Origin: Anaerolineae bacterium
GTDB lineage: Bacteria; Chloroflexota; Anaerolineae; UBA1429
Assembly (NCBI GenBank): GCA_040766725.1
Contig: JAXGPZ010000001.1
Span: 2,414,328 to 2,478,327 of the forward strand
Direction: 5' to 3'
Length of the DNA: 64,000 nt
Shown: piece after piece, positions 14,419 through 52,856 of the stretch
Layout: every line of letters starts with the position of its first letter
Position numbering within the stretch: the first letter of the stretch is position 1
The notes under the pieces: generated by a model
Database searches by the model: none
Seen by the model: only the letters and a program-made list of their open reading frames with translations
What the model was told of the DNA's origin: nothing
Position numbers and translations under genes: made by a program

Positions 14419-14690
14419 CACACCCCCCTTGGTCGATGTGGCGGGCGGCAAAGGTGCGTCGCGGGCCATGACGGCGAGCTTTGCGGTCCGTACGGGAGCA
14501 TTATGACGGGGCCGATTATCGTTGTCAAGTGGTATTTTGGTGGACGCTATCGGGCCGCCGACCCCGAGGCGCGCGACGCTATTCGGGCTGGGCGGGCGCG
14601 CACGCGGCGCGGCGAGCGGTTGACGTCATGCCCGGCATCGCCGACCATCGCCTGGCCCTGTCTCAACGCCGGCCACCCATGAGGGGCGCT

Positions 14691-14948
14691 ATGCACGAAT
14701 CGCCAGACGATGGGTACAACTCGGTCGGACAAGAGGCGTTCGAGGTCACGATCGCGCCGCTGCAAGCCGCTCAGGCCCCGGGCGCCAACAGCGCGCGCCA
14801 ACTGCCGGCTGCGTGCCTGGCGCGCAGCGCCGCGCTGGACCGCGCCGGGCCAGGCCTGCGGGCCGTCGTCGAGGTCAACCCCGAGGCGCTGAGCGATATG
14901 CCCAGCGCCCCTTGGCGGCCAGTGCCGCTGGCTAGGGTCAGCGCCTAG
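14691..14948 (+). pseudogene. N-terminal remnant (~85 aa) of an amidase (Asp-tRNA/Glu-tRNA amidotransferase-like amidase-signature family)
   Basis: FEVTIAPLQAA...ARSAALDRAGPGLRAVVEVNPEAL matches the usual amidase N-terminus pattern (LTIAELaaa...ARIEAlnP.LNAvvevnpeAl). It stops 45 nt before the convergent cassette. Confidence 0.4.
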
Positions 14949-14993
14949 TGCAGCGCTGGCTCTTGCCAGCCCTCGTGGCGCAACGGCAGACCA

Positions 14994-15335
14994 TCATGCC
15001 GACGGCTCTAGGGCTGCCTGCAAAGCCGCTTTGAGCTGGTCGGCGCTGGGTGGCTTGCCGGCAAAGCGCACCATTTCGCCAATGAGCACGGCCGGCGCAA
15101 AGGTGGCGCCGCGCGTCTCAAAGAGGGTCATGATCTGCCTGTGCTCCGCCGCCGTGAGCCCACCCTGTCCCGCGAGGATGGCACTCAGTGAGGCGTGGTG
15201 CACCTCGATGGTGAGCCCCAGTTGGCTGCATGCCTCCTTGAGGTTGCCTGCCAACACTCGGTCAAGACGCGCCAGATGCGGCATGCAGCAAGCGCCCGAG
15301 ACCGTGACGACGCGTAGTTTGCTGTCGTGTTCCAT
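14994..15335 (-). CDS. Thioredoxin_3-family small redox protein (redox-active-disulfide-protein-2-like, Cys-Cys variant, ArsD-reminiscent)
   Basis: 113 aa. KLRVVTVSGACCMPHLARLD...GLTIEVHH...APAVLIGEMV matches the thioredoxin-fold pattern that accompanies DUF318 permeases. A vicinal CC replaces the usual CxxC. Confidence 0.5.
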   Translation of the reverse strand: MEHDSKLRVVTVSGACCMPHLARLDRVLAGNLKEACSQLGLTIEVHHASLSAILAGQGGLTAAEHRQIMTLFETRGATFAPAVLIGEMVRFAGKPPSADQLKAALQAALEPSA

Positions 15336-15359
15336 GAACCGCTTCTCTCCTTCGAGTGA

Positions 15360-16283
15360 CTAGTGCGCAATCCAGTTCACGGCATAGCCGGTGCACATGG
15401 CCCCAAGGACCATGGCCAGGCCAAAGCCAATGACGTACTTTTTTCTGAACAGCTTGGTCAGCATCAGAATCTCTGGCGGGCTGATAGTTGTGGCGGTGAT
15501 CAGAAAGGCGAGCACCGCCCCCTGACTGAGACCCTTGAGCGAAAGCGAGTAGATGATCGGCACCACCGCCGCAGCGTTGACATAGAGCGGAACGCCGATC
15601 AGGGCGGCAATCGGCACGGCCAACAGCCCGGCGCCTCCAGCGTACCGGACGATGATCTCTTCCGGCACAAAGCCATAGATCAGGGCGCCGACCGCGCTGC
15701 TGATGACAATAATCGGCAGCAGGCTGCGGGCAAAGCCCAGGGTATAGTCCCAGGCGCGGGCCGCCTTGGCTCTAAAGCCATCCTCGAGCACGAGATCGAG
15801 CGCGCTCCCGTCAGCACTGGGATCAGCTGCGCGGGGCGGGCCACTGGCCACCTTGATCTGGTTCTGCCAGCCGGCCCGTTGCGCCAGCGTGCCAAAGACC
15901 AGCGCCAGCAGCCCCCCGGCGGTCAGAAAGACCAGGGCAGAGCGCACGCCAAAGAGCGGCGCCAGAATAGGCAACGCAATCTCCACTGGATATGGCGATG
16001 ACAACAGGAAGGTGGTCATCACCCCGATGGGAATCCCCGCCCTGGCCATAGTGGCCAACACCGGGACAGTCGAGCAGGAGCAGAATGGCGTCACATAGCC
16101 CAGGCCCAGCGCGATGCCTTGGCCGAGCAAGCCTTTTCTGCCTGCGAGGCTCTTGCGCAGTGTTTCCGGAGAGATATACTCCATCAGCAGGCCTGAAATA
16201 AAGGTGACGATCAAGAACAGCGGTATCAGTTCGGCCAAGATGATCAGGAAAAAGCGTCCGGAGCTGAGCAGCGTCACTAGCAT
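15360..16283 (-). CDS. DUF318 / ArsP-like permease with the TPFCSCS motif
   Basis: Eight predicted TM segments. YVTPFCSCSTVPVL matches the TPFcSCS signature of organoarsenical efflux permease ArsP and other DUF318 permeases. Confidence 0.7.
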   Translation of the reverse strand: MLVTLLSSGRFFLIILAELIPLFLIVTFISGLLMEYISPETLRKSLAGRKGLLGQGIALGLGYVTPFCSCSTVPVLATMARAGIPIGVMTTFLLSSPYPVEIALPILAPLFGVRSALVFLTAGGLLALVFGTLAQRAGWQNQIKVASGPPRAADPSADGSALDLVLEDGFRAKAARAWDYTLGFARSLLPIIVISSAVGALIYGFVPEEIIVRYAGGAGLLAVPIAALIGVPLYVNAAAVVPIIYSLSLKGLSQGAVLAFLITATTISPPEILMLTKLFRKKYVIGFGLAMVLGAMCTGYAVNWIAH

Positions 16284-16286
16284 GGC

Positions 16287-16637
16287 CTATGTCTCACTTT
16301 CCCACAAAGCCTTTTCGAGATAGGGCAGCACTTCTCGCCAGGTCTGGACGGCCACCTGGTAGGCTGCTTCGCCTTTGGGCGTCAGCTCAAAGACTCTGCG
16401 TGGCCGCCCGTCTTGGACTCTTTCGTCTATTTGTGCATATTCGCCCTCCAGCAGCGCTTTGAGAACGGGATATATCGTTCCATAGGCAGGCGTGCAGCAC
16501 CCTGCAGTGAACTCGGAGAGTTTCCCCAACAGAGCATATCCATGGGTTGGCTCGTCATGGAGCGTGCGCAGGATAAAGAACCGAGAGAGACTCATGTTGA
16601 TGAGCGACTTCCAATAGTCCGGGCTTTCGAGTTGCAC
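16287..16637 (-). CDS. PadR-family transcriptional regulator
   Basis: ILRTLHDEPTHGYALL...RRVFELTPKG is the winged-helix PadR signature. GTG start at 16637 has a GGGAGG RBS 6 nt upstream. The alternative ATG at 16595 gives 102 aa. Confidence 0.75.
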   Translation of the reverse strand: MQLESPDYWKSLINMSLSRFFILRTLHDEPTHGYALLGKLSEFTAGCCTPAYGTIYPVLKALLEGEYAQIDERVQDGRPRRVFELTPKGEAAYQVAVQTWREVLPYLEKALWESET

Positions 16638-16699
16638 CGTGAGCCTCCCGCATCCAGGATCTATATGCTGACCTTCTATATATCGAACATCGGCATATT

Positions 16700-17098
16700 A
16701 GCACCTGACGAAGATCGCGTCAAGACCCCTGGGGGCCGATCGGCCATGAATGCAGCGATGGCGTTGGGCCGTGGAGCGCCTTCAGACGGTGTCTGAGCGT
16801 GCTGGCGTGGCTGTGGCACGCCTCAGGGTTGGGCTGATGACCAGCGGACGCGCCCTGCCCGCGCCGCGCTCACCTGGGAGTGCCTATGTTGTAGCACCTA
16901 CGGCGGGTGCACGCCGCCGGCGAGGTGCGCGGCCTGTCGCTGGGGCTGACCTTTATGGGAACGGCCTTTAGCGAGCCGGCGCTGATTCGGCTGGCGTATG
17001 GCTTTGAGCAGCACACGGGCGCGCGCCGCCCGCCACGCTACCTGCCCACTTTGAGGCTGCCCCAGCCCGCTTGCGGCGGCGGCCTCGCTGGGCCCTAG
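16700..17098 (+). pseudogene. C-terminal remnant of the same amidase, with frameshift and in-frame TAG
   Basis: Frame 1 gives TPGGRSAMNAAMALG, an echo of the GGSSGGSAAAVAAG amidase signature. Frame 2 gives GLSLGLTFMGTAFSEPALIRLAYGFEQHTG, the amidase C-terminal GLPvGLQliG..fdE..Llr.A.a.E motif, preceded by a TAG at 16892. Confidence 0.4.
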
Positions 17099-17727
17099 TT
17101 CACGATGCGCACTTGCTCGAGGGTGACCGATACGTCCGTCGTCCCCACCTGAGCGATCGACTTGATGTAGCCCTCAAAGGCCACCAGTTGGCCCTTGCTG
17201 AGCTCGAGCGCGCTCTCTTTGGGCAGGTCGAACCTGATGGCGAACAGGCCACCCTTGTCCAGTCTGAGCGACAGCTCGTGCGCCACAGCGTCGCCTACGG
17301 GAAACTGGACGTTCTCGGGGTCGAGCGTGACCAGGCCGCCGGGCGTCACCTCGATGACCCTGCCCTGCCAGGCCACCCGCATGTCGATGATGCTATCGAC
17401 GTACACGGGCCATTGCAGCTCGGTCGCGCTCTTGTGCCGAGCCCACAGCTCGGCCGTGGTGAGCGCATAGTTGATGGTGGGCGTGGGCACCGGCGTGGGC
17501 GTGGGCACGGGTGTGGGCGTGGGCACCGGCGTGCGCGTGGGGCGCGGCGTACGGGTCGGGCGCGGCGTGGCCACTTCGGCCAGGCGCTCGACGATGGCCT
17601 GCGCTGGCTCGCTCTCGCGCTGACCATAGACCACGCCCGACAGAAACCCCACCAGCAGCGCTGCCAGCAGCGCGGGAACGATGACATACCAGCGATTGAG
17701 CACCGGCCGTGGCTCTCTAGGTTCCAT
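17095..17727 (-). CDS. Membrane-anchored hypothetical protein with a Pro/Thr-rich linker
   Basis: 210 aa from ATG 17727 (GGGGGAGAG RBS). N-terminal TM helix, then a TPRPTRTPVPTPTPVPTPTPVPTPT linker, then a ~120-aa C-terminal domain of unknown function. Confidence 0.6.
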   Translation of the reverse strand: MEPREPRPVLNRWYVIVPALLAALLVGFLSGVVYGQRESEPAQAIVERLAEVATPRPTRTPRPTRTPVPTPTPVPTPTPVPTPTINYALTTAELWARHKSATELQWPVYVDSIIDMRVAWQGRVIEVTPGGLVTLDPENVQFPVGDAVAHELSLRLDKGGLFAIRFDLPKESALELSKGQLVAFEGYIKSIAQVGTTDVSVTLEQVRIVN

Positions 17728-17880
17728 CGCCACTCTCCCCCACCCAGACTGGCTTTCAGTATGGACGCAGGGCGGCCGCCGCACAAGTGCGCCTGGCCAG
17801 GGGCGCCAGGCGCGCGGTGGTCCAGGCCCGCGCATCGATGGCGGCCTCAGCGAGGCCCGCGCAGGCCGGTCATTGACGCC

Positions 17881-45683: not shown

Positions 45684-46296
45684 CTAGCCCTACTCAAGCC
45701 AACCTCCCGACGATCAAAGCCAGGATGAGCACCTCTGTGATGGCTGTAGGTCATTTGCAGCGCAGTCACGGGGCTGCGCTGTACTGCTCCATCTCAAATG
45801 GAACTGGCAAGAGCTGATCCTCTATGCTCCTGATCGTTCTTGGCTCAGTGGGGAGCAGCAGCTGGCGAGCCTTGCACTCCGCGATCGCATCATAGACGCA
45901 ATGCCGCAGGTAGCCCAAGGTATTCGCACTCGCGCCGGAGGGGCGGGTGGTGGCGCCATCCGAGTCGCCTCTGCTCCCGTCAGGTCGGTGGAGGGCGCCT
46001 CGGGGCCAGGTGCCTGTTGCTCAGGCCCAACAGGCGGCCACCTGAGGACCCGGAACCGCAGGGCAGCTGATGCCGTTGCGCGGATCGTGTTGGGCCGGAC
46101 GGATGCGGACTCTCGCGAAAACTGTTCCAGCAGTGTCAGAGCCCTTTGTGCAGTCAGGCCCCAAGGGCTCTGGAGGAGAGCGGACGGGCACACCAAGACC
46201 CCAGCAAGGCTCTACGTAACGCTCTGCGATGCGGGTGGTGAGAATCCGCAGCCTGCGCTGTGGCCACCGTAGGCCAGCCCGATCGCCGCCAGCGCG

Positions 46297-46328
46297 CAAG
46301 CCAAACGGGCGCTCCACGGAGCGCCCGT
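46297..46328 (-). terminator. GC-rich hairpin (ACGGGCGCTCC / GGAGCGCCCGT) followed by TTGGCTTG, downstream of the corrinoid-protein gene
   Basis: Seen in the sequence 29 nt after the stop at 46357. The U-tract is weak. Confidence 0.4.
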
Positions 46329-46356
46329 CTGCAATCACTCGTCTCGGTTGCGGCCG

Positions 46357-46992
46357 TCAGCCCGCGATCAACTCGGCCACCAGCCGCGCCGCACCCGCCG
46401 CGTCGCGCGCATAGCCGTCGGCGCCGATCTCGTCGGCGTACTTTTGCGTCACCGGCGCACCGCCGATCATGATCTTGATCTTGCCGTGCAGCCCCGATTC
46501 CTTGAGCGCCTCGACCGTCGCCTTCATGCTCGGCATCGTCGTCGTCAGCAGCGCCGACAGCCCGATCACCTGCGCTCCGCGCTCGATCGCCGTCTGCACA
46601 TAGTTCTCCGGCGCCACGTCCACCCCCAGGTCGATCACTTCGTATCCCGCACCCTCCACCATGATCGCCACCAGGTTCTTGCCGATGTCGTGCAGGTCGC
46701 CCTTGACCGTGCCCACCACCACCTTGCCCTTGGGCTCCACGCCCCTCGCCACCAGCTCTGGCTTGAGTATGGCCAGCCCCGCCTTCATCGCTCGCGCCGC
46801 AATCAGCAGCTCGGGCACATAGTACTCGTTGATCTCGAACAGCCGCCCCACCTCGGCCATCGCCGGGATCATCGCCTCGTTCAGCACCCGGCCTGCCTCG
46901 ATGCCCGCCACCAACGCCGCACGCGTCCCGGTTTCGCAAGCCGCCATGTCGCCGTTCAAGATCGCTTCGTAGATCGCTTCTGGAAATGACAT
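46357..46992 (-). CDS. Cobalamin (B12)-binding corrinoid protein (MtaC/MtbC-like, DxHxxG)
   Basis: The B12-binding motif VKGDLHDIGKNLV (DxHxxG) and GGAPVTQ are present. The N-terminal helical cap resembles methyltransferase corrinoid proteins. Confidence 0.8.
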   Translation of the reverse strand: MSFPEAIYEAILNGDMAACETGTRAALVAGIEAGRVLNEAMIPAMAEVGRLFEINEYYVPELLIAARAMKAGLAILKPELVARGVEPKGKVVVGTVKGDLHDIGKNLVAIMVEGAGYEVIDLGVDVAPENYVQTAIERGAQVIGLSALLTTTMPSMKATVEALKESGLHGKIKIMIGGAPVTQKYADEIGADGYARDAAGAARLVAELIAG

Positions 46993-47004
46993 GCCTTTGC
47001 TCCT

Positions 47005-48003
47005 CTAGGGCTTGATCGCGGCGCGTCGCCAGGGGTCGGCCTGCAGGAATGCGTCTAGCATGACCTGCTTCTTTTCAGGCACTACACCGATGGCCTCGCC
47101 ATCGCCATAGTCGCTAAGGATAAAGCCGCCTTCGGGCGTCGCCCACCGCTCGAGCAGCAGTTGTGCCTCCTCGCGAATGTCGTCAGCGTCTTTGAAGGGC
47201 AGCGTGTGTTGAATATCACAGAGTGACTCGAAGCATATCCGACCGCGATACCTTGCGCCGATCTCCTCAATGCCCAAAGCGCGCGGCTGCTGCAAGTTGA
47301 TCACGTTGCAGCCGATCTCGATCAACGGCTCGATGACCTCGTTCACCTTGCCGCAGCTATGCATCCACACGTGCCAGCCCTTGGCGTGCATCGAGTCGAA
47401 AAGCACCTTGTATCGTGGCTTGAAAAACTCGTTCCACATCTTGGGGCTCACAAAGGTAGCGAGCTCGGTGCCCCAGTCATCAGTAAAGGAAAACCCGTGG
47501 ATCTGCCCGGGGAAGCGTGCATGGATATTCTCCATGATGCCCAGGTTGTACTCCATAACCTTGTCAGCCAGCCATTCCATGCTCTGCCGTTCGGCATACA
47601 GGTCTGTCAGTGTGTTCTGAAACCCATGCAACATGTGCATACGCTCGAACAGGAAAAACCCGATGCCGGTCATGATGTACTTGCCATCCGAGCCTTCGAA
47701 CCGCTCCTCCATGCCTTCATAGAACAGCGGGTTGTCGGGGTCAGGCCACCGATAGGAGTCCGCTTTGCTCAGATCTTCCAGCGGGTGCCCTTTGACCTGC
47801 CCCATATTGGACATCTCGGTCCGCTCCCACAGACACCCGAACCAATCATAGTCCTGACGTTTGGCACGGTCGCCCACGCCCTTGTTGTTCCAAGCCACAC
47901 CGAAAGTGTCATTGAGCCCCAGGAGCGCAAAGCGCACCGGTATGCGGTCAGGTGTTCGAAACTCGATCGCCCGCCGCACAACTTCGTATGATGACATGGC
48001 CAT
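47005..48003 (-). CDS. Uroporphyrinogen-decarboxylase-family (MtaA/MtbA/CmuA-like) methylcobamide methyltransferase
   Basis: N-terminus YEVVRRAIEFRTPDRIPV is URO-D-like. Putative Zn ligands are in WMHSCGKV (HxC) and a downstream Cys (FESLCD), as in MtaA. It lies 12 nt before the corrinoid protein gene. Confidence 0.75.
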   Translation of the reverse strand: MAMSSYEVVRRAIEFRTPDRIPVRFALLGLNDTFGVAWNNKGVGDRAKRQDYDWFGCLWERTEMSNMGQVKGHPLEDLSKADSYRWPDPDNPLFYEGMEERFEGSDGKYIMTGIGFFLFERMHMLHGFQNTLTDLYAERQSMEWLADKVMEYNLGIMENIHARFPGQIHGFSFTDDWGTELATFVSPKMWNEFFKPRYKVLFDSMHAKGWHVWMHSCGKVNEVIEPLIEIGCNVINLQQPRALGIEEIGARYRGRICFESLCDIQHTLPFKDADDIREEAQLLLERWATPEGGFILSDYGDGEAIGVVPEKKQVMLDAFLQADPWRRAAIKP

Positions 48004-48046
48004 GGCAGTCTCCTGATGCGTGGTAGATATGGCGCGAGGCAGACCG

Positions 48047-48895
48047 CTAGCCTTTGAGCCCGCTCATCGCCATGCCTTCGACGAATTGCCGCTGAAAGAT
48101 AAAGTAGACGATCAGGATAGGCACAGTGGCCACCGTGGTAAAGGCCATGACCGTACCCCAATCCACCGAAAACTCGCTATAGAAGCGCGTGACAGCAATC
48201 GGGATAGTGAACATCTCCGTTTCGTTGACCACAATGCTCGGCCACAGGAACGAGTTCCACGCACCCATGGCGGTGAACACAATCACCGTCGACACCGCCG
48301 ACTTGGACAGCGGCAATACCAGGCTGAACAGGATGCGCAGATCACTAGACCCATCTATGTAGGCCGCGTCGACCAGATCCGTCGGAACGGCCAGAAAGTG
48401 CTGTCGAAGCAGAAAGATAGCAAATGGCGTCATCAAGCCCGGCAATATCAGGCCGAGGTAGGTGTTTGTCAGGTGCAGGTTGCGCACCATGATATAGAGC
48501 GGGATAAGGATCACGTACGATGGGATCATCATGGTCAGTAGACACAAGGTGAAGACGGTATCGCGCCCTGGAAAAGTAAAGCGCGTCAGCCCATAGGCCA
48601 CGATGGCCGAGAGCAGAAGCGTAGTCAATACCTGGATCAAAGCAGTAAAGGCACTGTTGAAATAGACGCGTGGAATGTCCACCAGTCGCCAGGCTTCGCG
48701 ATAGTTGCGTAATGTGCCCAGTCCCGGCGTAATCCACCGCGGCGGGTAGGCCATCACCTCCGTATTGGGCTTGAACGAGGCCAGCGCCATCCACACCAGC
48801 GGCGCCAAGGCGATCACCGCGCCTGCCGTCAGCATGACGTAGATGATCCCTAGCAGAATCCACCTGCGAACACGAGGCCATCTGCTGGCCTGCAT
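48047..48895 (-). CDS. Sugar ABC transporter permease (MalG/UgpE-like)
   Basis: EAA motif DAAYIDGSSDLRILFSLVLP. ATG 48895 has a GGAGGAGGAG RBS. The track start 48913 is TTG. Confidence 0.85.
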   Translation of the reverse strand: MQASRWPRVRRWILLGIIYVMLTAGAVIALAPLVWMALASFKPNTEVMAYPPRWITPGLGTLRNYREAWRLVDIPRVYFNSAFTALIQVLTTLLLSAIVAYGLTRFTFPGRDTVFTLCLLTMMIPSYVILIPLYIMVRNLHLTNTYLGLILPGLMTPFAIFLLRQHFLAVPTDLVDAAYIDGSSDLRILFSLVLPLSKSAVSTVIVFTAMGAWNSFLWPSIVVNETEMFTIPIAVTRFYSEFSVDWGTVMAFTTVATVPILIVYFIFQRQFVEGMAMSGLKG

Positions 48896-48943
48896 AGGGC
48901 ACTCCTCCTCCAAAGCGACCGGCTGACGGGTCGAGGCTTGGAC

Positions 48944-49858
48944 CTAGTACGTTACCTCGCGCTCAACGACGCGCCGCTGGATGATCGTCACCAGTAGGAT
49001 CACGAGCGTCAACACAATGCCCATCGCCGTGCCATAGCCCAGCCGAAGATATTGGAACGACTCGCGATACAGCAGATAGACTGGCGTCCAGGTGCTGTTG
49101 AGCGGTCCGCCAGCAGTCATGAGGAATGGCTGCATGAACACCTGAAAGCCCCAGATGCCGTTTAGGATGATGCACAGCACAATGGTGGGGTTGAGCAGTG
49201 GAATGGTGATGCGCAGCAACTGCTGCATCGAGTTTGCTCCGTCAATCCGCGAGGCCTCATAGTACTCTCGGGGAATGTTCTGCAGGCCCGCCAGAAAGAT
49301 CACTGTGTAAAAGCCCACGCCCTTCCACACGTCCATCAGGGCGATGGATTCCATGGCTTGCTTGGGCGATGAGATAAACTGCTGTTTAGGAATGCCCAGC
49401 TTCCCGAGGTAGTAGTTGATCAGCCCCATCGAGGGCGAATACAGCGACGTGAACAGCACCGCGATGACGGTTAACGAGACGACGTTGGGCACAAAGTAGA
49501 CCGTCCGGAAAAAGCCCCGCAAGAACTGCAGATTATTGAGCGCCAGTGCGGCCAGTAGCGAAAGCACCAACGTTAGGGGTATCTGCACCACCATATATCT
49601 GCCCACGTTGGCATAGCTCTTGAGGTAGAGATCATCTTGCAGCATTGTCCTAAAGTGCTGCAAGCCGACAAAACGCGGCGTCTCATAGAGTGTCTCAAAC
49701 TCGCGGAAACTGAGCCAAAATGCATAGAGCAGCGGAAAGAGCCAGAATATCAGAAAGAAAAGCAGGTATGGTGAAAGAAACGCGTAACCCTTCAGCACCT
49801 GGCGATGCCGGTACAACAGCCGGTCGATCTTTTCGCCCAGGCTGGGTTTCTCTGGCAT
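48944..49858 (-). CDS. Sugar ABC transporter permease (MalF/UgpA-like)
   Basis: MPEKPSLGEKIDRLLYRHRQVLKGYAFL... EAA loop YEASRIDGANSMQQLLRITIP. Start chosen at ATG 49858. The RBS is distant, so the start is uncertain. Confidence 0.75.
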   Translation of the reverse strand: MPEKPSLGEKIDRLLYRHRQVLKGYAFLSPYLLFFLIFWLFPLLYAFWLSFREFETLYETPRFVGLQHFRTMLQDDLYLKSYANVGRYMVVQIPLTLVLSLLAALALNNLQFLRGFFRTVYFVPNVVSLTVIAVLFTSLYSPSMGLINYYLGKLGIPKQQFISSPKQAMESIALMDVWKGVGFYTVIFLAGLQNIPREYYEASRIDGANSMQQLLRITIPLLNPTIVLCIILNGIWGFQVFMQPFLMTAGGPLNSTWTPVYLLYRESFQYLRLGYGTAMGIVLTLVILLVTIIQRRVVEREVTY

Positions 49859-49957
49859 CACAGCGCGAGTAGCCAAGTCTCTCCTTTCTCCCCGTCTCCA
49901 TAGGGAGCACCCGGAGCGAACGCAGAGCATCCGCTCCGGGGTCATGCTGCACAAAAC

Positions 49958-51403
49958 CTATCTGGCGGCGCGCGCCTCTTGGACAGCCTGGAGCAGCTTG
50001 TCGAACTCGGCGCTGGCGGTCTCCATCGCTTCTTCGACGGGCTTGTTCTCAAAGAGAATGCTCTGGTACTCTTGCTGGATCACGGCTTCGATACGAGTGT
50101 ATTCCATGCCCACCCGAGGAATGCCGTTGACCGCCAGGGCTACCGCTTGTTTGTGCTGCGGAATGCCCTCTTCTAGATAGGGATGATCGCCCATGTCGTT
50201 GCGGGCTGGCGTGTAGTAGTTTCGACCAAAGTCGGCTTCCTGATCGGCCTGCGTGCAAAAGTTGATCCAGTCCCAGGCCTCGGCCTTGTGCTCGGCGATC
50301 TTGAAGATCACCTGGCCCATGCCATCGCCCACGCCCGTCACAGCGGGCTCCTTTTTCTTGGCGTTGGGCGGGAGCGGATAGCCCATTGGCGCCCAGCGGA
50401 ACTTGTCACCGATGGCATCCTGCATGCCCTTGTAGCCACGGTTCGACGGCGTGAAGGAGATCGGGACAAGCTGGTCGTTGAAGAAGCTGGTACCTGGCGC
50501 AGGCTTCTCGGGCGATACCCAACCCTTGTCAAAGATGTCCTTGAACAGCTTGACCGTGTTCACCACGGGCTCGGTGTTCAAGAGCGACTTGAACTCTGTG
50601 GTGTCGGCGATGGTGACGATCGAATCGGTATACATGCCCGGATACGAAGCCAGATAGAGCATGATGGCCCAGGCGGTGTGAACAAGCATATCCACCGGCC
50701 AGTTGCCACTTCCCTGCAGTTTCTCCAGCCAGACGAGGTACTCTTCCCAGGTCTTGGGCGGCTTGTCAGCATCCAGCCCGGCCTTGTCGACCATATCGAG
50801 GTTGTAGGTCGGGCAGTGAATGTCGATGCAGTTGGGCATGATGTAGACGTCTTCCATATCGAGCTTCAATCGCTCGATCATCTGAGGGAAGATCGCCTTT
50901 TCCAGGTCCGAGTAGCCGGGGTAGACGGTGTCGTCATTCAGCTTCTCGAGCACCTGCAGACGCACAAACTCGTACGTCCGCAACGTGTGGAGCCACATGG
51001 TGTCGGGGCGTTCGCCAGCCGCCAGCCGTGTGATCATGCGCTCCTCGGTCTCACCTGGGGCGGCTGCATACGACTTGGAGAGCACGTCCACGTCGGGGAA
51101 CTGCTCCATAAAGCGCGGCGCGATGGCGGCGAAAGTCGGCTCTAGCGCTGCTCCCTGAAAGCCATAGATGGCCAGTTCGACCTTTTCTTTGGGCGCAGGG
51201 GGAGCGGTCGCGATCTTCTCGACCACCTTCTCGACGACCTTGGGCGTGCCCTCGACGATGACGGTCTCCTTTACAACCTCCTTGACAACCTTCTCGACCT
51301 CGACGACCTTGGGCTGGCAAGCGGCCAGCAACGCAGCGCCGGCTCCGGCACAGCCGAGGCGCAACACAGCACGTCGTGTCAACATTCTTCCCTGAATCGC
51401 CAT
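49958..51403 (-). CDS. Sugar ABC transporter substrate-binding lipoprotein (family 1)
   Basis: MLTRRAVLRLG, lipobox LLAAC, VVEVEKVVKEVVKETVIVEGTPKVVEKVVEK linker. AAGGAGGG RBS before ATG 51403. Confidence 0.85.
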   Translation of the reverse strand: MAIQGRMLTRRAVLRLGCAGAGAALLAACQPKVVEVEKVVKEVVKETVIVEGTPKVVEKVVEKIATAPPAPKEKVELAIYGFQGAALEPTFAAIAPRFMEQFPDVDVLSKSYAAAPGETEERMITRLAAGERPDTMWLHTLRTYEFVRLQVLEKLNDDTVYPGYSDLEKAIFPQMIERLKLDMEDVYIMPNCIDIHCPTYNLDMVDKAGLDADKPPKTWEEYLVWLEKLQGSGNWPVDMLVHTAWAIMLYLASYPGMYTDSIVTIADTTEFKSLLNTEPVVNTVKLFKDIFDKGWVSPEKPAPGTSFFNDQLVPISFTPSNRGYKGMQDAIGDKFRWAPMGYPLPPNAKKKEPAVTGVGDGMGQVIFKIAEHKAEAWDWINFCTQADQEADFGRNYYTPARNDMGDHPYLEEGIPQHKQAVALAVNGIPRVGMEYTRIEAVIQQEYQSILFENKPVEEAMETASAEFDKLLQAVQEARAAR

Positions 51404-51536
51404 AGCCTCGTTCCCTCCTTTGCCTCTATACACTCCCTGTAGGGCGTCGGGCCAAGGCGGCTACTCGCGGACCGGGCGGATCATCCCTCTGATGAGGGCG
51501 CTCCGACAATCCCGTTCCGCAGCAGGCAAGAGCCTT

Positions 51537-51572
51537 TGCCGCGCCGCCCAGACTGTCTACAATTATGACAGC
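51537..51572 (+). promoter_or_regulatory. Promoter-like TTGCCG, 16-nt spacer, TACAAT, overlapped by the palindrome CTGTCTACAATTATGACAG (candidate operator), in the divergent region between the sugar operon and the regulator gene
   Basis: Seen in the sequence at 51554..51572 (palindrome) and 51559..51564 (-10). Confidence 0.3.
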
Positions 51573-51635
51573 AAACCACCATCGCGAGAGGGCGTTCCTG
51601 CTCAATTGCGGCCACGATGAGGCTATCACCCGGAC

Positions 51636-52856
51636 ATGACGTCAAGCGATCAGCTGGCAGGTATGGTGCGCTGGGCCCTGCGTCGACTTTACGATCCTGT
51701 GGCGCTGCGCACCAGTCCGCTGGTAGCGCTTCTTGGGTTGGATGCTGACCGCAATCCCGCCAAGCGTCTGCAGCAGGTGCTCATCAGCGCCATCGAGGCG
51801 TGCGAGCCAGGGCCAGAAGTGCCTGAGCAGTCGCGGGCCTGGCGCCTGCATGAGGTACTGCGCTCTCGTTATGTGGAGCAGTCGGGTCAGCAACAGGTCG
51901 CCGACCAGCTCGGCATCGGGGTGCGCCATCTTCGCCGTGAGGAGGTCGAGGCGATCACGGCGTTGGCCCATCTACTCGAGCCCGCCATCGCCCCCACAAC
52001 TGGCCTGGCACACGCTGAGCCCGGCCGGCATGAGCCCACGCCGCCTTTCTCAGCCGACGAACCACAACGCTGTGCCACGCCGCTCAACGAGGTCTTGATC
52101 GGCGCAATAGAAACGGTGGCTCCCTTGGCCGACAGGCACCTGGTGCACCTGGCTCCACCTCCGGCCGACATGTTGCAGAGCATATGCTGCTGCATCGAGC
52201 CCATGGCCTTGCGCCAGGTCCTGATCAACCTGCTGTGCGTGGCGGTGCGACAAACGCCGGGTGGCGAGGTGCGTGTAGATGTTCACTCCGATGGCGTCGA
52301 GCTCGTTCTCATGCTCATCGGCGTTGGTCGCAGCCATCCTGTGCCACGCGATGCCGATGACTGCGAGAACATCGCGTTGACAGCCGCGCTTCTCAACAGG
52401 TATGAGGCTACGTTGACGCTCTCGCCGCCCGAGGCCGATTTCGTGGCCACCCTGATCACACTCGCCAGCCCAGCCATTACGGTCATGGTGGTTGAGGACA
52501 ACGCCGATACCCTGAGTCTGTTGCAGCGCTACGTGGCCAGCTCGCCCTACCGAGTGCTCGGTCTTGGGCAGGCCGAACGGGCCATTGAGATGGCATGCGA
52601 GAACCAGCCGGACGTCATCGTGCTGGATGTGATGATGCCTACGGTCGATGGCTGGGAGTTGCTGGGCCGCCTGCAGCAGCATCCACAGACCAGTCATATC
52701 CCGCTGATTGTCTGCACGATTTTGGCGCAAGAGGAACTAGCACGCACACTCGGCGCTCGCGACTTTGTGCACAAGCCGGTTACGCGTCAGGCGTTCCTGG
52801 CTGCGCTCGATCGGCAGGCGCCTGCGATTGGCGGCCCAGCGCATCGGTCACACTGA
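51636..52856 (+). CDS. Atypical regulator: N-terminal HTH-like domain, degenerate HATPase_c-like domain (no recognisable HisKA), C-terminal receiver domain
   Basis: QQVADQLGIGVRHLRR is HTH-like. LRQVLINLLCVAVRQTPGGEVRVDV is N-box-like. The REC domain is VMVVEDNADT...DVIVLDVMMPTVDGWELL...PLIVCT...FVHKP. Confidence 0.65.
   Translation: MTSSDQLAGMVRWALRRLYDPVALRTSPLVALLGLDADRNPAKRLQQVLISAIEACEPGPEVPEQSRAWRLHEVLRSRYVEQSGQQQVADQLGIGVRHLRREEVEAITALAHLLEPAIAPTTGLAHAEPGRHEPTPPFSADEPQRCATPLNEVLIGAIETVAPLADRHLVHLAPPPADMLQSICCCIEPMALRQVLINLLCVAVRQTPGGEVRVDVHSDGVELVLMLIGVGRSHPVPRDADDCENIALTAALLNRYEATLTLSPPEADFVATLITLASPAITVMVVEDNADTLSLLQRYVASSPYRVLGLGQAERAIEMACENQPDVIVLDVMMPTVDGWELLGRLQQHPQTSHIPLIVCTILAQEELARTLGARDFVHKPVTRQAFLAALDRQAPAIGGPAHRSH

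Follow-up and report, generated by a model that had tools for sequence, protein, structure and literature searches.

The stretch of DNA considered here (the window: 64,000 nucleotides, positions 2,414,328 to 2,478,327 of contig JAXGPZ010000001.1, assembly GCA_040766725.1) belongs to an Anaerolineae bacterium of the Chloroflexota. At 14994-16637 it carries three closely spaced minus-strand open reading frames (ORFs), which encode a PadR-family regulator, an ArsP_1/DUF318 permease and a 113-residue protein with two adjacent cysteines (CC), in that order. On balance, the genes and their relatives speak for an autoregulated operon of three genes that serves the efflux of trivalent arsenicals, with methylarsenite as a plausible substrate. 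Each protein has one conserved cysteine pair (CC in PadR, CxC in the permease and CC in the small protein), and none has a third conserved cysteine. The operon is most likely an ars-like efflux operon of an undescribed type, in which the sensor comes from a family other than ArsR and an ArsD-like chaperone is coupled to a secondary carrier. To our knowledge (compare PMC6205960), no arsenic-responsive repressor has been characterised outside the ArsR/SmtB family, and the sole known arsenic chaperone is ArsD, which serves the ArsA ATPase.

The permease gene starts 3 nt past the PadR stop codon, and the ORF for the small protein begins 24 nt beyond the permease gene. A preliminary description, made from the letters of the window, proposed a PadR regulator, a DUF318 permease and a CC partner of the Thioredoxin_3 family. 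The genes, their coordinates and their motifs stand, TAGCCTP, TPFCSCS and SGACCMPH having been confirmed codon by codon, but membership of Thioredoxin_3 does not. The features are as follows.

16287..16637, minus strand: PadR-family winged helix-turn-helix regulator gene (116 aa, GTG start; Pfam PadR 58.5 bits)
15360..16283, minus strand: ArsP_1/DUF318 permease gene (307 aa; PF03773 164 bits)
14994..15335, minus strand: gene for a thioredoxin-fold CC protein, ArsD-like, proposed metalloid chaperone (113 aa, cytosolic)
16494..16499, minus strand: codons of the PadR vicinal cysteines C47-C48, proposed ligand sensor (CC in 120/120 top homologues)
16071..16091, minus strand: permease motif TPFCSCS, residues 65-71, with the conserved C68-x-C70 (invariant in orthologues)
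15285..15290, minus strand: small-protein cysteine codons C16-C17 (CC invariant in the family)
16695..16723, minus strand: sigma-70-like promoter, with TTGACG (16723-16718), a 17-nt spacer and a TG-extended TAATAT (16700-16695)
16660..16686, minus strand: operator-like tandem repeats with a 15-nt period, TCGATATATAGA (16686-16675) and TCAGCATATAGA (16671-16660), proposed PadR site
16644..16649, minus strand: ribosome-binding site GGGAGG, upstream of the PadR GTG start

Cysteine pairs in the three proteins

The regulator exceeds the gathering threshold of the PadR family (PF03551, 27 bits) and contains only two cysteines, both in the C47-C48 pair of the TAGCCTP motif (encoded at 16488-16508). 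Its closest sequence relatives in the PDB are PadR/LmrR structures; in the alignment with LmrR the pair falls in the loop that joins alpha2 to alpha3, immediately ahead of the recognition helix. In the AlphaFold2 model (pLDDT 91.7), which has the topology alpha1-alpha3, wing and C-terminal helix, helices 33-44 and 52-64 lie on either side of a loop (45-51) that forms the turn holding C47-C48. C47, C48 and P50 are invariant among relatives from several phyla, in an alignment that leaves out the plasmid-borne locus L018. A profile of CC-bearing PadR sequences retrieves 2103 clusters at E<=1e-10; in the best 120 of these the CC is present without exception, as [G/D]CCxP in the turn of the helix-turn-helix, and 118 of the 120 match T..CC.P..G..YP. 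The proposal that a PadR protein with a GCC motif of its own takes the place of ArsR is thus upheld. Among the matches listed, the most specific name is "PadR family transcriptional regulator", and NCBIfam has no curated model for the GCC subfamily. The curated NCBIfam subfamilies of PadR are all missed by the window protein (padR_acidobact, 39.6 vs 101.8 bits; Rv3488, 25.4 vs 140; PhaQ, 17.8 vs 139), and a literature search tying PadR to arsenic, ArsD, arsM or methylarsenite returned nothing relevant. The chrA-padR pair of class 1 integrons is an adjacency of another kind. As far as sequence and gene context can tell, the [G/D]CCxP proteins are a large unnamed PadR subfamily tied to arsenic genes.

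By analogy, such a PadR would resemble the ArsR/SmtB sensors, as a winged-helix repressor that autoregulates an efflux operon and, it is proposed, senses its ligand through a cysteine pair. However, PadR is a different family, its site lies in the alpha2-alpha3 turn, and there are only two cysteines per monomer. R773 ArsR likewise has its site within the helix-turn-helix, where the CVC cysteines mark the start of the motif; AfArsR and SpArsR have vicinal cysteine pairs, and a two-cysteine ArsR from Shewanella is reportedly selective for methylarsenite, MAs(III).

The small protein has three cysteines, C16 and C17 in the SGACCMPH motif (encoded at 15276-15299) and a non-conserved C36. Only its C-terminal half matches Thioredoxin_3 (PF13192), at 19.8 bits against a Pfam threshold of 24.8, and it is therefore not a plain member of that family, although some of its relatives do exceed the threshold (up to 39 bits). 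The CxxC redox motif of Thioredoxin_3 is not present, its place being taken by CC across the family, and the score against the MTH895/ArsE model TIGR00412 is 16.3 vs 62 bits. The ArsD family (PF06953) gives no match to the window protein at E<0.1. Five of nine close relatives match the ArsD Pfam model weakly (best 0.0011, under the threshold of 27), and a profile of the wider CC family matches it at 5.5e-5. A Pfam comparison of Thioredoxin_3 with ArsD, suggested in the preliminary description, thus ends with neither threshold passed and does not place the protein in a clearly non-redox, non-metal family. In a plain search of the PDB the sequence finds only noise; a nine-sequence profile finds marginal thioredoxin matches, and a tblastn search against plasmids found nothing.

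The structural model gives a clearer affiliation. When it is compared with the PDB by Foldseek, the top seven matches are all ArsD. In the model, beta1 spans residues 7-13, the CC follows at 16-17 and a helix starts at 19, so that the pair would occupy the thioredoxin active-site position opposite the cis-proline. As modelled, the likeness to ArsD (R773; PDB 3MWH, 3KGK, 3KTB; PF06953) comprises a cytosolic thioredoxin fold of about 110 residues with CC in the loop after beta1. It differs in that the third ligand of the three-coordinate As(III) site of ArsD, Cys18, has no conserved counterpart in the small protein. Since hhalign aligns the N-terminal CC region to neither ArsD nor Thioredoxin_3, the equivalence of the pair to Cys12/13 of ArsD rests on modelled topology. 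The suggestion of an ArsD-like CC partner is sustained by the Foldseek matches, by the weak ArsD profile matches of its family and by the ArsA-type neighbours of relatives (see below). MTH895/ArsE-type Thioredoxin_3 proteins (PF13192, TIGR00412) are the other point of comparison: they too commonly lie directly downstream of ArsP_1 permeases, as in strain NT-25 and loci L036 and L041, and their C-terminal beta-beta-alpha element is homologous to that of the small protein (hhalign E 5e-8). In contrast to them, the small protein has CC for CxxC, is about 37 residues longer, contains an inserted helical segment and scores below threshold.

Among 58 diverse relatives with a mean identity of about 20%, the only invariant columns are the CC and the cis-proline, P81. 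The closest homologues form just eight clusters in a database of 5.8 billion proteins, all with VSGACCMPH. Met18 and His20 were considered as extra ligands of a Cu-type site and rejected, because both vary within the same gene architecture (CCSPN, CCMRH and CCSPA also occur). Given the alignments, the CC pairs of PadR and of the small protein are not chance.

The permease matches ArsP_1/DUF318 (PF03773) over its full length (164.1 bits against a gathering threshold of 32.3, residues 11-303). Besides the conserved C68 and C70 it has a non-conserved C297. It misses the equivalog cut-offs of the NCBIfam SaoE and SO_0444 models (85.3 vs 325 and 78.6 vs 300 bits, respectively). In a tree built with context-defined relatives (PadR-, ArsR- and Trx_3-linked), permeases of the window type form a clade of their own with 61-74% identity, and each of them that has sufficient downstream sequence is followed by a CC protein. 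The sister group, 31-36% identical to this clade, comprises PadR-linked permeases of Cupriavidus and Moorella and a Staphylococcus plasmid permease. The latter, which is among the nearest plasmid homologues, is regulated by an ArsR with CVC and adjoins arsD-arsA. The nearest annotated relatives thus sit in ars or PadR-CC contexts, which does not contradict the link to ArsP suggested at the outset. The reading of TPFCSCS as an ArsP motif, in contrast, has to be given up: the motif is found in PadR-linked, ArsR-linked and Trx_3-linked clades alike and is therefore a feature of the family and not an ArsP signature. In the SO_0444 Cu/Zn and SaoE families, moreover, no motif is conserved more strongly than CSC (Haft 2022 preprint, 10.1101/2022.07.06.499078).

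With Campylobacter jejuni ArsP (TCDB ArsP family), compared by family and motif, the permease shares the ArsP_1 domain and the CxC pair of TPFCSCS, but it belongs to its own clade (31-36% identity to the nearest annotated relatives) and its regulator is PadR, not ArsR. The known substrates of characterised ArsP are MAs(III) and roxarsone(III), Rox(III), both of which it exports, whereas it does not export As(III) (review PMC6205960). Two further transporters, the SO_0444 Cu/Zn exporter and the SaoE protein of the SAO system, share the permease superfamily, the CSC motif and accessory proteins rich in CC or CxCC, among them SaoT, an atypical thioredoxin-like protein (10.1101/2022.07.06.499078). 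The operon differs in that it has no selenoproteins, ABC importer or MerB-like lyase, and in that the accessory motif is CC and not CPCC or UxxC.

Promoter, gene order and genomic neighbourhoods

The region upstream of the PadR gene, at 16640-16700, had been described as AT-rich. It is not merely so, as it holds operator-like repeats, spaced at a 15-nt period, and parts of a conserved promoter. The repeats are flanked by the -10 element on one side and by the ribosome-binding site on the other. In about 20 related loci the -35 and -10 elements and the repeats (consensus TCGATATAT[ACT]GA) keep their position, while the flanking intergenic DNA is otherwise divergent, a pattern that matches the appearance of an autoregulated repressor operon. 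PadR would be the protein that binds these repeats.

At least 10 distinct loci of Chloroflexota type show the order PadR, permease, CC protein, and the small protein is 43-62% identical among independent loci with this gene order. The contigs that carry its eight homologous clusters all contain PadR, ArsP_1 and CC protein genes, in that order, in otherwise unrelated surroundings. A genome scan also finds the module in one Litorilinea and two Anaerolineaceae metagenome-assembled genomes, and a metagenome scan with PadR adds 28 loci, in 20 of which an ArsP_1 permease follows the regulator. At L007:3754-7434 (GCA_041890195.1) the orthologous module adjoins a type III CRISPR-Cas (Cmr/Cas10) cluster, probably an incidental adjacency.

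Relatives of the regulator recurrently adjoin arsenic genes. A PadR 59% identical to that of the window lies 4 nt downstream of an arsM gene that exceeds the curated NCBIfam cut-off (328 and 289.5 vs 263 bits), and in Photorhabdus akhurstii an ArsM-like methyltransferase is encoded downstream of PadR. The Litorilinea module adjoins an ArsC-like gene and two ArsR genes. On a Roseomonas mucosa plasmid (L021:5416-8108) and in Azospirillum halopraeferens (L026:5473-8195), PadR-GCC is followed by a flavoprotein of about 483 residues and then by an ArsK-like MFS pump. The flavoproteins have CC-rich N- or C-terminal tails and find ArsO as their best, weak, NCBIfam match; the transporters score 242 and 175 bits against an ArsK cut-off of 400. 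The Azospirillum unit is divergent from aioXSR-aioBA, an arsenite-oxidase island (aioB, 181 bits vs a cut-off of 95.65). ArsP_1 permeases occur with PadR-GCC on the Cupriavidus basilensis plasmid pRK1-4, together with a CC-repeat peptide, and in Moorella, together with a CC-tagged DUF2703 protein. With arsM, ArsK-like, aio, ArsA-like and ArsP_1 genes next to PadR-GCC relatives, the notion of a soft-metal(loid) module with an atypical cysteine chemistry gains support.

The arsM-PadR pairs, with their 4-nt spacing, are at L036:4170-6853 and L042:134-1150. At L036 they are followed by an SO_0444-like permease (221 bits, cut-off 300) in which PICCIG replaces CSC and an internal TRASH/YHS-like cysteine motif (DPVCGMSVD...YYFCSPHC) is inserted. 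Genomes with a PadR-GCC-linked permease often have a second, more distant ArsP_1 permease (AVCSCT) next to a classical CxxC Thioredoxin_3 gene (L024:7641-10366 in Moorella, L036:615-1897 and L041:3097-4413). The two architectures therefore coexist, and neither replaces the other.

Distant members of the CC family adjoin ArsA-type ATPases. In five of the six contexts examined (L011, L013, L014-L016, L017 and the archaeal L055-L057 are the contexts of this kind), the neighbour, mostly translationally coupled, is a half-size ArsA/Get3-type ATPase of about 307-311 residues with a single nucleotide-binding domain and the motif DTAPTGHSLRE (TIGR00345, 236 bits vs a cut-off of 135). The pair of half-size ATPase and CC protein is found in bacteria and in Methanomethylicaceae archaea. 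This adjacency parallels that of arsD and arsA (for which see PMC6205960), with the difference that the window has no ArsA gene and the adjacency is confined to a sister subfamily of the CC family. Three of the contexts also hold a regulator with vicinal cysteines, namely two PadRs with the same CC motif and one MarR ending in RACCNG. The gene for the MarR-family protein (L017:936-1397) lies directly upstream of the genes for the CC thioredoxin-fold protein and the ArsA-like ATPase, which suggests that more than one family of regulators has acquired a vicinal-cysteine sensor site.

A further kind of small protein or N-terminal tag, with the motif CC[AS][VI][KRQ]IEE, occurs after ArsP_1 permeases regulated by PadR-GCC or by a CVC-type ArsR. 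Three copies make up part of an 89-residue Cupriavidus basilensis pRK1-4 protein without a Pfam match (L018:4901-5170), and one is found in a 44-residue peptide ending in CC from a Staphylococcus pettenkoferi plasmid (L019:4899-5033). The Moorella tag is part of a fusion with a DUF2703 domain (L024:6408-7154), and the fourth locus is L050:1115-1261. These proteins seem to fill the same accessory role with a second scaffold, one that is not a thioredoxin.

An ars island in the window was ruled out; the genes around the operon encode an Opp-type ABC transporter, a Gfo/Idh/MocA oxidoreductase and a solute-binding protein. The flanking gaps were also considered as the site of a riboswitch or another RNA element, which was rejected, as the window has no Rfam or tRNA match. 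Downstream of the small gene there was no sign of a terminator-like hairpin. Between the operon end and the downstream Opp-type ABC transporter genes lies a 525-bp gap (14470-14993), with a strong promoter-like site on the minus strand (TTGACA-17-CATAAT, 14528-14500, 11/12 matches). Just upstream of the operon, a 246-residue ORF on the minus strand (17095-17835) contains the Pro/Thr-rich repeat TPRPTRTPRPTRTPVPTPTPVPTPTPVPTPT and has no Pfam match; its product may be secreted or anchored in the membrane, with the repeat as a linker. Elsewhere in the window, at 46001-52000, G+C falls to 0.56-0.62, vs 0.64-0.74 in the rest, and GC skew is negative at 46-48 kb; the segment may have been acquired horizontally.

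Proposed mechanism and alternative substrates

The mechanism that we propose combines these elements, and in it we infer the identity of the ligand, repression by PadR, the hand-off from chaperone to permease and the direction of transport. A PadR dimer would bind the TCGATATAT-type repeats, overlapping the -10/+1 region, and keep the operon repressed. A metalloid bound by C47-C48, in the turn of the helix-turn-helix, would distort the recognition helix and release the repressor, in a manner comparable to R773 ArsR. The small protein would catch the metalloid on C16-C17, opposite the cis-proline, and pass it by thiol ligand exchange to C68-x-C70 of the permease for export. Arsenical efflux is favoured because there is one cysteine pair per protein and two thiolates suit R-As(III), because ArsP exports MAs(III) and Rox(III), because arsM and padR are linked, and because a two-cysteine ArsR with the matching selectivity is said to exist in Shewanella.

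Several observations weigh against arsenic as the substrate. The operon is isolated, with no other ars or metal gene within the 64-kb window, and the C-terminal beta-beta-alpha of the small protein is closer in sequence to Trx_3 than to ArsD. In archaea, where the ArsA-like ATPase and the CC protein occur as a pair, neither ars nor PadR genes lie nearby, so the role of the pair may extend beyond arsenic handling. Upstream of a related module at L010 are genes for a P1B-ATPase and a CsoR-like repressor, and close to that of Moorella are genes for a CDF transporter and ArsR. Hg(II), too, is bound by vicinal cysteine pairs, for example in MerT, MerF and the C-terminus of MerA. Finally, SO_0444, a Cu/Zn exporter, and SaoE, for which the metal is unknown, are among the relatives of the permease family that have been characterised or named.

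Much of this would fit an operon with the same sensor-chaperone-permease architecture and a soft metal cation as substrate, be it Hg(II), Cu(I)/Ag(I), Cd(II) or Zn(II), which we regard as unlikely but as the most serious of the alternatives. The metal-transporter genes of L010 and Moorella and the known Mer pairs favour it, as does the CCMPH of the close subgroup of the small protein, since Met and His are typical Cu(I) ligands. SO_0444 and SaoE are, moreover, the only NCBIfam permease models matched, and the CSC and CC motifs of the family have been read as heavy-metal, mercury-like handling (Haft, 10.1101/2022.07.06.499078). However, the matches amount to 79-85 bits against cut-offs of 300-325, Met18 and His20 are variable within the same module architecture, and mer genes are present in none of more than 40 loci inspected. 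Adjacent cysteines in one chain would also offer poor geometry for linear two-coordinate Hg(II) or Cu(I), and what recurs next to members of the PadR subfamily is arsM, ArsK-like pumps, aio, ArsA-like ATPases and an ArsC-like gene.

That the operon is instead a thiol-redox or reactive-sulfur/electrophile module is improbable. The CC of PadR would then be a disulfide switch (vicinal or intermolecular), the small protein would be redox-active and the permease would export a sulfur or electrophilic compound. The position of the small protein's cysteines, at the thioredoxin active site opposite the cis-proline, is compatible with such a role, its C-terminal half is closest to redox-active thioredoxins of the MTH895/MJ0307 type, and strain NT-25 has genes for a CxxC Trx_3, a rhodanese and OsmC after that of an ArsP_1 permease. 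However, the replacement of CxxC by CC is invariant in all 58 diverse sequences, and the eight-membered vicinal disulfide is strained and does not correspond to the thioredoxin mechanism. The partners of the wider CC family are ArsA-type ATPases, not reductases, and the neighbourhoods of the PadR subfamily are arsenic-related. Least probable is that the small protein reduces pentavalent organoarsenicals or arsenate to the trivalent state before export, in the manner of ArsC: a thioredoxin-type fold with a reactive cysteine pair would suit a reductase, and such a partner would make sense because ArsP substrates are trivalent, but the protein resembles none of the ArsC families, lacks a conserved third cysteine and an Arg or anion-binding loop, and has relatives paired with ArsA-type ATPases as ArsD is.

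Implications for arsenic handling

If the operon is an arsenical efflux system of the kind favoured here, its parts might represent wider families. Tentatively, and with more reserve than for the operon itself, the [G/D]CCxP PadRs (over 2000 clusters in Chloroflexota, Proteobacteria, Firmicutes and archaea) could be an unrecognised family of trivalent-arsenical-sensing repressors, perhaps methylarsenite-selective, and the CC proteins a second, ArsD-independent lineage of arsenic chaperones that serves ArsA-type ATPases or an ArsP-type carrier. The known families of metalloregulators, few in number, would gain a metalloid sensor of the PadR type. A chaperone hand-off would be seen to feed a secondary permease as well, making this the first chaperone-coupled secondary metalloid exporter. 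It would also answer how arsP is controlled without ArsR; the regulation of arsP in Paraclostridium is given as "mechanism unknown" (PMC11653729).

Two-cysteine sites of this kind would then be natural candidates for methylarsenite-selective biosensors. More than 2000 clusters named "PadR family transcriptional regulator", together with arsM-padR and padR-arsK-like units, would gain a better annotation, an improvement of consequence for surveys of arsenic cycling, which now count only ArsR-linked genes. The main value beyond the window lies in a large unannotated PadR subfamily and a rare family of CC thioredoxin-fold proteins, both tied to arsenic genes.

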